From a virus: a DNA stretch of 64,000 nucleotides. Location: positions 43,641-107,640 of IMG/VR virus record IMGVR_UViG_3300026189_000003; one strand, given 5' to 3'. Below, piece by piece: positions 9,144 to 57,349 of this stretch. The notes beneath the pieces were generated by a model. That model searched no databases. It had not been told where the DNA came from and worked only from the letters and a program-made list of their open reading frames with translations. A program made the translations under genes and the position numbers. How positions within the stretch are numbered: the stretch's first letter is position 1; the number at the start of each line of letters is the position of its first letter.

Positions 9144-9151
9144 TATTTATA
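9144..9151 (-). promoter_or_regulatory. T4-type late promoter TATAAATA upstream of the gp25-gp6 operon
   Basis: Exact T4 gp55 consensus on the minus strand, 19 nt upstream of the gp25 ATG. Confidence 0.7.
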
Positions 9152-9785: not shown

Positions 9786-10019
9786 ATGAGCGATCAAATC
9801 AAAAACTTTTCCAGCGGGAAAGATTGGTGGTATATGGATAGAAAACAAGCTATCCAACTTCTAGATGTAGTTACTGAAGCATATAATAAGAAGCTTTCAG
9901 AAGAACTATGGTATGATGACCATGATGTAGCTCTAAAAATGTATGAAATCAAAAACGATATCATGCGATTTCCTGACATAATATTCCGTAATGCTGGAAT
10001 TAAAATTGAAAAAGACTGA
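9786..10019 (+). CDS. Hypothetical protein
   Basis: 77-aa ORF 4 nt after clpP on the same strand. Confidence 0.6.
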   Translation: MSDQIKNFSSGKDWWYMDRKQAIQLLDVVTEAYNKKLSEELWYDDHDVALKMYEIKNDIMRFPDIIFRNAGIKIEKD

Positions 10020-16257: not shown

Positions 16258-16265
16258 TATTTATA
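16258..16265 (-). promoter_or_regulatory. Late promoter TATAAATA, 5 nt before ATG 16252
   Basis: Exact T4 late consensus. Confidence 0.75.
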
Positions 16266-23847: not shown

Positions 23848-23877
23848 TTGACTTTAGATATATGAGTCCCGTATTGT
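23848..23877 (+). promoter_or_regulatory. Sigma70-type promoter pointing into a non-coding region
   Basis: AAAGG-TTGACT-18-TATTGT; same AAAGGTTGACT context as the promoter at 63312. Confidence 0.6.
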
Positions 23878-23883
23878 TACACA

Positions 23884-24240
23884 CTATAGGCACTCTTTAG
23901 GCAGAACAGGCAAAACTTAGGCAATATAGCATCTCTACAAGGCGCGAACTACTCTGTAACAACAGCGGCGAATCGCATGATGCAAGGCAAGTGTTAACTC
24001 AGGCACAAATGATGACAGCTCTGCTAGAAACAGATATGCAACTGTCAGCTTACACGTAAACAGCCAACTTTGGGTATGTGTAGGTTCCGTTGGATGAAGC
24101 AGGAATTATAGGGGTATCGGCCAACCGCCTCTGCAATGTTCCTCAAGTTGGTATGACGATCTCTGGTAATATATCAAAGGTCCCTTCGCCCGGCAACGGG
24201 TGAAGTATGGCCAAATCCAGGTAATAGGTATAAAGAACAC
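23884..24240 (+). ncRNA. Candidate large structured ncRNA of unrecognised class
   Basis: No ORF of 60 aa or more; GC-enriched; many stems, GCAA-capped 9-bp hairpin, two candidate pseudoknots, 5' AGGCA repeats; boundaries approximate. Confidence 0.7.
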
Positions 24241-24349
24241 ATACAACTATCACTTTCTAATACGATGTAATTAAAATTTTTGCTTTTAGAAAACTAACGC
24301 AGAGCGTTGTACAATAGAGCTTATGCTCTATTCCTACGTAGAAACAATC

Positions 24350-25421: not shown

Positions 25422-25458
25422 TATTTATAAAGTACACATATTAAGGTCTATATAAATA
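25422..25458. promoter_or_regulatory. Back-to-back late promoters for the gp26-like gene (-) and tape measure (+)
   Basis: TATAAATA on the minus strand at 25422-25429 and on the plus strand at 25451-25458. Confidence 0.75.
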
Positions 25459-27880: not shown

Positions 27881-27914
27881 TTGACAACAGCAAAGAAAAC
27901 ATATACTATAAATA
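27881..27914 (+). promoter_or_regulatory. Overlapping sigma70 and late promoters upstream of portal
   Basis: TTGACA-17-TACTAT, and TATAAATA at 27907-27914. Confidence 0.65.
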
Positions 27915-42314: not shown

Positions 42315-42322
42315 TATAAATA
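42315..42322 (+). promoter_or_regulatory. Late promoter of the tail sheath gene
   Basis: TATAAATA. Confidence 0.7.
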
Positions 42323-53095: not shown

Positions 53096-53103
53096 TATAA
53101 ATA
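53096..53103 (+). promoter_or_regulatory. Late promoter 5 nt before the terminase ATG
   Basis: TATAAATA-CAGTT-ATG. Confidence 0.75.
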
Positions 53104-56127: not shown

Positions 56128-56241
56128 TTGACTTTTATCTAAATACTAAATATACTAGTGTTTAATGTTAAAAATATTAAACATTAACAGGCAACAACAT
56201 AGGCTAATAAAGGCACATATAGGCACAAGGAGGCTCAAATT
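56128..56241 (+). promoter_or_regulatory. gp32 promoter/leader: sigma70 plus late boxes, palindrome and phased AGGC(A/T) repeats
   Basis: TTGACT-17-TATACT; TAAATA twice; inverted repeat 56156-56186; AGGCW at 56189, 56201, 56211, 56221, 56231. Confidence 0.75.
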
Positions 56242-57309
56242 ATGGCAACACTAGCAGAAATCCGTGCGAAACTGGCGGAACAAGAAAACAAATCCTCGTC
56301 AAGAGGTTCAGTATCGGATAACGCAATTTATCCGTTCTGGAATATTCCGGAAGGAACAACTTCAACAATTAGATTTTTACCAGATGCAGATAAAAGTAAT
56401 ACTTTTTTCTGGGTAGAAAGAGCAATGATCAAATTACCTTTTCCAGGTGTTAAAGGTCAAGCTGATACTAAACCAACTATTGTACAAGTACCGTGTATGG
56501 AAATGTGGAATGAACCATGTCAAGTACTAGCGGAAGTAAGAACTTGGTTTAAAGATAAATCATTAGAAGATATGGGAAGAAAATATTGGAAGAAACGTTC
56601 TTATATTTTTAATGGTTTTGTAGTTAATTCAACATTAGATGAAGATACTGTTCCTGAAAATCCAATTAGAAGATTTGTAATTAATCCTTCTATCTTTAAT
56701 ATTATCAGATCAGCATTGATGAATCCAGATATGGAAGATCTACCAACTGATTTAGAATCAGGAAGAGATTTCAAATTAACGAAAACTCAAAAAGGTGGAT
56801 ATGCTGACTATTCAACATCAACTTGGAGTTTCAAAGCAAGATCAATTAGTGAATCAGAAAGAGGAGCAATTGATCAATATGGTTTACATAATTTAAGTGA
56901 CTATATGCCTAAGAAACCATCTCAAGAAGAACAAAAAATTATTCAAGAGATGTTTAAAGCATCAGTTGATGGAGAACTATATGATCCAGATAGGTTTGGT
57001 CAATACTATAAACCAGCTGGATTACAGACTTCGGGTTCTACAAACAGTGCACCAGCAACAGCATCAGCGACTGCAACTGCACCAGTAACTGAAACTGCGA
57101 CAGCTACACCAGTAGCACAGGCGCCAGTAACAGCTACACCGGTAGTAGAAGCTCAAGCACCAGTAGTAGAAAATACTCCTGAACCTGCAAAAGTAGAAGT
57201 AGCCGAGACAGTAACGGCAACTGCTACTGAATCAACTTCAGCTACAGGAAGCAAAGTATCCGCTGACGATATTTTGTCAATGATCAGAAGTAGACAAGCA
57301 AACAAATAG
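56242..57309 (+). CDS. gp32: Single-stranded DNA-binding protein
   Basis: IRFLPD, C.E....PC, YWKKRSY, G.DF.LTK...GGYADYSTS; upstream of uvsX. Confidence 0.9.
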   Translation: MATLAEIRAKLAEQENKSSSRGSVSDNAIYPFWNIPEGTTSTIRFLPDADKSNTFFWVERAMIKLPFPGVKGQADTKPTIVQVPCMEMWNEPCQVLAEVRTWFKDKSLEDMGRKYWKKRSYIFNGFVVNSTLDEDTVPENPIRRFVINPSIFNIIRSALMNPDMEDLPTDLESGRDFKLTKTQKGGYADYSTSTWSFKARSISESERGAIDQYGLHNLSDYMPKKPSQEEQKIIQEMFKASVDGELYDPDRFGQYYKPAGLQTSGSTNSAPATASATATAPVTETATATPVAQAPVTATPVVEAQAPVVENTPEPAKVEVAETVTATATESTSATGSKVSADDILSMIRSRQANK

Positions 57310-57320
57310 TAAGTTAATGT

Positions 57321-57349
57321 ATGATGGTGCATATTATTTGCACCATCAT
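57321..57349 (+). promoter_or_regulatory. 11-bp perfect stem-loop between gp32 and uvsX (no U-tract)
   Basis: ATGATGGTGCA TATTATT TGCACCATCAT. Confidence 0.55.

Follow-up and report, generated by a model that had tools for sequence, protein, structure and literature searches.

The window, the whole stretch of DNA analysed here, makes up the final 64 kb of a 107.6-kb IMG/VR virus contig (34% GC; estimated completeness 29%) from an uncultured marine giant phage. It holds two arrays of phased AGGC units, one at the predicted 5′ end of a structured non-coding RNA and the other in the leader of a gene for a gp32-type single-strand DNA-binding protein (SSB). A preliminary description of this DNA had given the positions and spacings of both arrays, and all of them proved exact. 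As it had also stated, each array lies just downstream of a TTGACT promoter; both promoters (TTGACT at 23848 and 56128) are sigma-70-like and are preceded by A-rich tracts. Transcription starts at the two loci are predicted from sequence. The coordinates of all features are collected in Table 1.

Table 1 Features of the RNA locus and the SSB locus, and gene-proximal copies of a T4 late-promoter word, in the window.
Feature	Position	Strand	Remarks
RNA promoter, sigma-70-like	23848..23877	+	TTGACT, 18 nt, TATTGT; A-rich tract upstream; GGTTGAC box and A-tract conserved in relatives
Structured non-coding RNA, ~450 nt	23884..24335	+	Ends inferred; conserved core 24084-24234
RNA array, four YAGGCA units	23888..23923	+	Starts 23888, 23899, 23908, 23919; spacing 11, 9, 11; predicted RNA 5′ end
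SSB promoter, sigma-70-like	56128..56156	+	TTGACT, 17 nt, TATACT; T4-late-like TAAATA word overlaps promoter
SSB-leader 5′ hairpin	56163..56186	+	Predicted; fold kept with changed sequence in relatives
SSB-leader array, five AGGCW units	56189..56235	+	Starts 56189, 56201, 56211, 56221, 56231; spacing 12, 10, 10, 10
gp32-type single-strand DNA-binding protein gene, 355 aa	56242..57309	+	Pfam gp32, AlphaFold/Foldseek, annotated homologues
Gene-proximal TATAAATA copies	9144-9151(-), 16258-16265(-), 25422-25429(-), 25451-25458(+), 27907-27914(+), 42315-42322(+), 53096-53103(+)		

The gene behind the second array had been called gp32 in the preliminary description, and this assignment was borne out. 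Its Pfam gp32 match (E=1e-5, 26.1 bits) falls just under the cut-off of 26.8 bits, and an AlphaFold model built with 22 homologues (mean pLDDT 64, with a well-modelled core) had the RB69/T4 gp32 core as its top six PDB matches in Foldseek (E 8e-6 to 2e-4, probability 1.00), at an identity to gp32 of only ~15%. Homologues are annotated as SSB in the phages GAP32, CBB and Atu_ph07, and in all three a RecA/UvsX-like gene follows the SSB gene in the same order as in the window. By tblastn, the nearest named relatives of the protein belong to jumbo phages, namely Sinorhizobium phage Phosso (62%), PA5oct (51%) and Atu_ph07 (49%). A 10-bp perfect hairpin (ATGATGGTGC ... GCACCATCAT) at 57314-57349, between the SSB stop codon and the SD of the UvsX-like gene, is probably a terminator or attenuator that separates the two genes.

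The SSB leader was compared with those of 80 related SSB loci from marine viral contigs (92-54% identity), each read upstream of the start codon. Relatives at 66-92% identity share one order of elements, consisting of a TTGAC promoter with a 17-nt spacer, a hairpin, three to six tandem units and the SD. The consensus of the unit is AYAT-AGGC-W-A-A-Y-A-T, and the units of close relatives are mostly AGGCWAAYAT decamers. Among 62 intervals between units, 40 (65%) measure 10 nt, 12 measure 11-12 nt and six measure 20 nt, the last being places where the intervening unit has decayed. AGGC and the pyrimidine before it are strictly invariant in array units, and the word is never inverted (178 AGGC and no GCCT across 64 unique SSB leaders). 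Copy number varies among leaders (2-6 AGGC overall). Relatives down to 55% identity retain between one and three units, AGGC or TGGC, which are spaced more widely, and in a few distant leaders AGGC is missing and copies of the TGGCA type alone remain.

In the window, the last unit (56231-56235) lies inside the SD AAGGAGG (56227-56233), 8 nt 5′ of the ATG at 56242, and 34 of the 58 unique SDs of relatives read GGAGGC, with a unit fused to the SD in the same way. AGGAGG sites among the contig's own genes were too few for SD statistics to be of use. The SSB leader of the related genome G016 (L234 1430-1500) contains four perfect 11-nt AGGCATAACTA repeats directly before the start codon, its last AGGC lying 12-15 nt before the ATG without a GGAG-type SD, and these repeats look like a very recent tandem expansion.

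One way to account for an array that merges into the true SD is that the units, each of which contains AGG, mimic the SD and dock 30S subunits as standby sites, boosting translation of an SSB that is needed in large amounts; on the RNA, they would act as a 5′ stabiliser, and no dedicated protein would be involved. The G016 leader, with four perfect units and no other SD, fits such a role, and in Bacillus untranslated RNAs are known to be stabilised by SD-like 5′ elements. The pairing itself speaks against it, since AGG alone, three bases rather than at least 4-5 nt, pairs with the anti-SD of 16S rRNA, if the host has the canonical CCUCC tail, and the flanking Y and C mismatch in both registers. 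Selection for docking would also favour GGAG or AGGA, which the arrays avoid. We therefore regard SD mimicry as decidedly unlikely.

SSB leaders built from repeats of other words occur in related giant phages, with TAGCACAAT in Atu_ph07, CGGTACAA in a Vibrio phage and CAAAGAAGCAAA in GAP32 and CBB. In the last two phages CAAAGAAGCAAA stands twice in the SSB leader, and the similar words CAAAGAAACA and CTAAGAAACA precede the gene for the large subunit of DNA topoisomerase II (L164 290-350, equal to GAP32 240990-241050, and L160 340-400); of these copies, one lies within the promoter spacer and the other immediately 5′ of the SD. This distribution hints at a small replication-gene regulon in these enterobacterial relatives.

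A T4-late-like TAAATA word is found ~6 nt before the SSB-leader hairpin in many clades, both near and distant, and a late-type start at this word could bring the hairpin into the SSB transcript. Copies of the full T4 late-promoter word TATAAATA are no more numerous in the window than expected (8 matches vs 10). Seven of the eight copies lie 6-56 nt upstream of gene starts, mostly those of structural genes, which suggests that the phage uses T4-type late transcription.

At the other locus, no plus-strand ORF of at least 40 aa was found within 23884-24335, and the GC content of the RNA (42-51%) stands out from that of its immediate AT-rich flanks (21-26%). A search of the window with Rfam 15 gave no match at the gathering score, the only matches at E values up to 5 being at chance level (E 3 and 3.5), and tRNA and tmRNA gene searches found none. 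Relatives of the RNA were reached through the neighbouring 782-aa protein and an invariant 23-nt core word, which yielded 7 viral and 19 metagenome contigs. Across these relatives the 782-aa protein is 38-42% identical, and conservation of the RNA far exceeds that of its neighbours; at 16 of its 98 predicted pairs both bases have changed with pairing maintained. A covariance model of the 150-nt core (R1) scored 174.9 bits at the window RNA, which is the single copy in the contig, and together with a looser core pattern it led to ~30 further homologues. In the 250-kb contig G006, the full-length R1 match was weak (E=0.33), and the homologue was accepted after alignment over the whole length and the finding of a 5′ array.

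Beyond this group the RNA was not recovered. Neither locus had a blastn match among 50,697 phage records, five large distant contigs searched with the RNA by blastn yielded nothing significant, and searches for related loci with the 217-aa and baseplate flank proteins returned nothing. Model R1 had no match in Phosso, PA5oct, Atu_ph07, Vibrio phage 2.275.O, GAP32, CBB, Turkey5 or XaC1, and no likeness to PA5oct ncRNA001 or ncRNA002 was visible.

In low-GC marine clades, every copy of the RNA whose 5′ end is on the contig opens with YAGGCA (or AGGGCA) units just 3′ of the promoter. This 5′ array is kept in the 26 close contigs and in the distant homologues G006, L178, L185 and G016. It has typically three to five units and up to 10 or more, set 9-12 nt apart with drifting spacers. 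In G016 (L175 about 9870-10010; G016:C1:275540-275700), the 5′ region of the RNA has expanded to at least 10 AGGC units in higher-order repeats of ~40-50 nt, each containing ATTGTTCGCAT; in the SSB promoter of G016 this word lies across the predicted -10 box and the transcription start. In GC-richer clades (L223, L173, L191, L176, L203), the RNA starts at a conserved CATAGTAAC...TGTTTGGTCGAGGC segment and carries no AGGC array, so the array appears to be an optional 5′ module of the RNA. In L176, the terminator hairpin of the upstream gene ends only 7 nt before this segment. The SSB gene is absent from all contigs with array-less RNA clades.

Public metatranscriptomes provided a weak hint that the RNA is expressed. 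Twelve RNA runs from 12 studies held small shares of the stretch, and RNA-library contigs from three studies cover 23906-24164 and not the flanks (3 of 4 runs compared; depth ~3), with the provisos that DNA can be present in RNA libraries, that contigs give no transcript ends and that no weight attaches to the bare regions around the covered part. The 3′ region of the RNA (24296-24335) has two conserved hairpins without a U-run, which, read on the minus strand, resemble a terminator for the convergent baseplate genes. The word (U)GCCUACGUAG after these hairpins is complementary to the 5′ word CUAUAGGCA, so that the RNA ends could pair. Pairing of the 3′ word UGCCUACGUAG with CUAUAGGCA is likewise possible and was set aside for want of co-variation support. 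In most relatives (L102, L103, L107, L108), a small plus-strand ORF that begins MEFI(I/M)KAIIGG and resembles a membrane protein lies 60-120 nt 3′ of the RNA. The window lacks this ORF and has minus-strand genes 3′ of the RNA instead, which indicates that the RNA is not an obligatory leader of it.

We then asked how far the AGGC word is confined to these two places. The total number of AGGCW words in the window is not raised (141 observed vs 164 ± 12 in shuffles). Clusters of at least four AGGC with gaps of at most 16 occur at two loci only, the SSB leader and the RNA, when both strands of the 107.6-kb contig are counted. Among 100 versions of the contig simulated with a first-order Markov model, 84 had a largest AGGC cluster of 2 and 16 of 3, and none reached 4. 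It is thus the clustering at two loci, and not overall abundance, that is exceptional, and this clustering is not due to chance. The other sigma-70-like promoters of the contig have short leaders without an array, and the UvsX leader carries none either. In G016 (302 kb, 85% complete) and G035, three-unit arrays are likewise found at the SSB leader and the RNA alone, and fragments from close relatives have a three-unit array solely at whichever of the two loci they carry. Additional AGGCW pairs in G006-G010 were enriched relative to the control, yet nearly all were coding (Lys-Ala or Glu-Ala codons) and were dropped.

The preliminary description had listed further AGGC words at 23940, 23985 and 24001. 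All three are present, and that at 23985 is conserved in most relatives, but the one at 23940 is not conserved, and the one at 24001, though invariant, lies within the structured core and outside the array. It had also described both arrays as apparently unstructured. Their predicted folding is indeed weak (-2 to -7 kcal/mol per 40-70 nt), and the six-unit array of relative L011 has zero pairs in its centroid fold. However, structure avoidance beyond composition had to be rejected, because the arrays are no less structured than dinucleotide shuffles (mean z -0.9 for leaders and +0.06 for RNA arrays); the lack of structure comes from composition. Three other explanations of the word were set aside. 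Base pairing of the RNA with the SSB leader would call for a repeated GCCU, which does not exist; a Rho rut site fails on the similar frequencies of G and C; and for a sigma-54 -24 box the spacing is wrong.

Four genomes contain both loci (the window genome, G006, G016 and G035), and all four have the AGGCW word at both. The longest word shared between leader and RNA 5′ end measured 9, 12, 12 and 16 nt in the four within-genome comparisons and 6-10 nt between genomes, and the true pairing of leaders with RNAs gave the highest sum among the 24 permutations. In G016, GCGATCTAGGCA and ATTGTTCGCAT are common to the SSB leader and the RNA, and in G035 the two loci share a 16-mer that spans one and a half decamers. 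Both arrays are therefore conserved across relatives and, as far as four genomes can tell, their flanking words vary together, so the checks that the preliminary description had proposed on arrays elsewhere in the genome and on co-variation at the two loci speak for a true pair. These comparisons support a real, specific and co-evolving pair of arrays, although the co-variation, coming from four genomes, could also reflect sequence exchange between the loci. They suggest that one factor, perhaps the SSB itself, reads the word at both.

Exchange of this kind is central to the view that the two arrays have no function in common and owe their likeness to tandem slippage and to recombination or gene conversion that occurs now and then between two A/C-rich segments close to promoters. 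Copy number does change fast (3 to 10 or more units), G016 contains perfect 11-mers as well as higher-order repeats, and long words shared within a genome are what gene conversion would leave behind. Yet AGGC is kept at both loci over SSB identities from 92% to 55% while the spacers drift, it is never inverted, and there is no third locus. An origin without shared function consequently seems highly improbable to us.

A second question is whether the units act in DNA or in RNA. The preliminary description had offered helically phased DNA iterons as its own alternative, and a double-stranded reading can be put more generally as direct-repeat operators or iterons for a phage DNA-binding protein that shuts off or times both promoters. 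A spacing of 10-11 bp matches the helical repeat, the same type of promoter precedes both arrays, and GAP32 has a copy of its own word within a promoter spacer. Distant clades add to this. There, AGGCA or TGGCA copies flank the TATAAT -10 box, another lies ~10 nt upstream of the -35 box, and the inverted repeat, with its 5′ arm, overlaps the predicted -10 box; copies in these positions would be absent from the transcript of that promoter.

In the window's clade, by contrast with such an operator, the units of both loci all lie on the sense strand and past the predicted promoters rather than over them, 33-98 nt downstream of the -10 box in the SSB leader and 11-45 nt downstream of it in the RNA. 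Spacings of 9-12 nt within single arrays suit cooperative DNA binding poorly, and the last unit is fused to the SD in most of the leaders compared. The hairpin, which overlaps the promoter in distant clades, would be transcribable from a start at the TAAATA word preceding it. In G006, moreover, the RNA array starts 10 nt 3′ of an ORF and has no adjacent sigma-70 promoter, which fits an RNA element better than a promoter operator. The iteron alternative is thus weakened by the variable spacing and by G006 and keeps the distant-clade copies around the -10 box in its favour, and we judge action on double-stranded DNA to be unlikely. Action in RNA seems most likely to us, given the overlap of the units with the SD, the latitude in their spacing, a G006 array that stands apart from any sigma-70 promoter and the precedent of T4.

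The reading that we prefer, tentatively and with less than even confidence, is that the AGGCW units, as single-stranded RNA, are bound by a single trans-acting factor, for which the phage's own gp32-type SSB is the likeliest candidate, and that they form an autogenous operator on the SSB mRNA and a tail on the RNA. The SSB is the simplest candidate reader because its gene is the only one always linked in cis to the leader array. The SSB mRNA, with its 5′ hairpin followed by three to six weakly structured units that end on the SD, would then be an autogenous translational operator similar to that of T4 gene 32. Surplus SSB, no longer engaged on single-stranded DNA, would coat the leader units and cover the ribosome-binding site. 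The ~450-nt RNA would present the same AGGCW units on an unpaired 5′ tail and bind the factor that binds the SSB leader. It might either dock the factor on itself or soak it up and so relieve repression of SSB; we infer the action in RNA and the identity of the binder, and consider both directions of effect.

Several points count against the SSB as the reader. We know of no OB-fold SSB that reads a word such as YAGGCW. T4 gp32 covers ~7 nt per monomer, which does not match the 10-11-nt period of the units. The copies outside the predicted transcript in distant clades, arrays that are no less structured than their composition dictates and the existence of RNA clades without an array also weigh against it.

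The first of these points leads to an explanation with the same logic at the RNA level and a different reader, either a dedicated phage repressor, RegA-like in role, or a host RNA-binding protein, with the RNA as its sponge or partner. The strict invariance of AGGC and of the preceding pyrimidine would suit a dedicated RNA-binding protein better than an SSB, and a motif shared by an mRNA leader and a sponge RNA is the logic of CsrB/CsrA and CrcZ/Hfq-Crc. The exclusivity, strand bias and co-evolution of the arrays apply to such a protein equally. On the other hand, the RegA (PF01818) and CsrA (PF02599) profiles had no match in the contig (29% of the genome), the SSB gene alone is always linked in cis to the leader array, and a global repressor should have more than one mRNA target, whereas the 85%-complete G016 has a single array-bearing mRNA. 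We hold a different reader to be rather unlikely.

If the SSB is the reader, it could gauge its own level on two RNAs, repressing its mRNA through the phased AGGCW units while the structured RNA buffers free SSB or is itself delivered by SSB, for instance to replication or recombination intermediates. This fuller circuit is doubtful as it stands. If true, the RNA would be the first partner or sponge of its kind for a phage SSB, no RNA partner having turned up in a literature search, and one of the large orphan RNAs of jumbo phages would gain a first function. The circuit between SSB and RNA had been the central proposal of the preliminary description. What stands of it is a specific, conserved and co-varying pair of arrays, one of them before a gp32-type gene, and what has lost ground is the helical phasing that went with iterons. 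Nothing supports the link that it drew between the arrays and a replication origin, and no feature of an origin was found.

Autoregulation of SSB through a repeated unstructured leader is the textbook mechanism of T4. To our knowledge, it has never been settled how gp32 tells its own mRNA from other nucleic acid. The phage group described here provides a natural experiment on this question, with a T4-like architecture, a sharp word (YAGGCW), variable copy number and one other genomic site. Should one protein read both arrays, it would offer a sequence-specific handle on the recognition of RNA by SSB, a first functional clue to the large orphan RNA of marine jumbo phages and, in phage DNA replication, a protein-RNA buffering circuit of a new type. 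The hypothesis is open to test with short synthetic RNAs and recombinant protein, for which the uncultured host is not needed.

Among known systems, the direct-repeat DNA operators include the 11-bp repeats of ParR/parC, the heptads of the omega repressor and the metboxes of MetJ. Like these, the AGGC arrays consist of short non-palindromic units placed head to tail at about one helical turn near promoters. Unlike them, the units lie in predicted transcripts and run into the SD, their spacing at the RNA gene is irregular, and no cognate DNA-binding protein was found.

As a phage-borne, large, conserved and structured RNA with its own predicted promoter, the RNA resembles the large phage RNAs without an assigned function, such as GOLLD, ROOL and the ncRNAs of PA5oct. 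In PA5oct, a related phage, RNA-seq defined highly expressed ncRNAs of 236-619 nt (PMC7318152). No repeat in common with an SSB leader has been reported for any of these RNAs; the RNA described here has one, and it has no Rfam match.

With the sponges CsrB/RsmZ of CsrA and CrcZ of Hfq/Crc, it has in common that a non-coding RNA carries several copies of the short, single-stranded word found at the ribosome-binding site of a regulated mRNA. The word differs, being AGGC in unpaired RNA and neither GGA in hairpin loops, as in CsrB/RsmZ, nor AAnAAnAA, as in CrcZ. Unlike in a simple sponge, the copies on the 5′ tail are joined to a large conserved folded core of ~350 nt that a sponge would not need. 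Unlike in CsrB/CsrA, one mRNA target is visible and CsrA (PF02599) is absent from the contig (29% of the genome). The RNA therefore resembles protein-sponge RNAs in logic only, and is outside the CsrB/CsrA family by word and context.

The closest parallel is the gene 32 operator of T4, the folded 5′ element of which is a pseudoknot that nucleates binding. Next in that operator come over 40 nt of RNA with less structure, which contain UUAAA/UAAA repeats and the ribosome-binding site and on which gp32 binds cooperatively (PMC535899); the autogenous translational operators of T4 and RB69 gene 32 have been reviewed (PMC3014915). The SSB leader of the window shares with them its place before a gene for a gp32-fold SSB and a run of weakly structured repeats of ~50 nt that reaches the ribosome-binding site. 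The candidate for its folded 5′ element is a predicted simple hairpin, in which no pseudoknot was found and the 5′ arm of which, in distant clades, overlaps the predicted -10 box. The leader differs from the T4 operator in its word, AGGCW(AAYAU) with a 10-nt period instead of UUAAA/UAAA. The second, non-coding RNA with the same word has no counterpart in T4. On the evidence of sequence and predicted fold, we class the SSB leader as a putative variant of the T4 gene 32 type of translational operator, set apart from it by word, period and hairpin.
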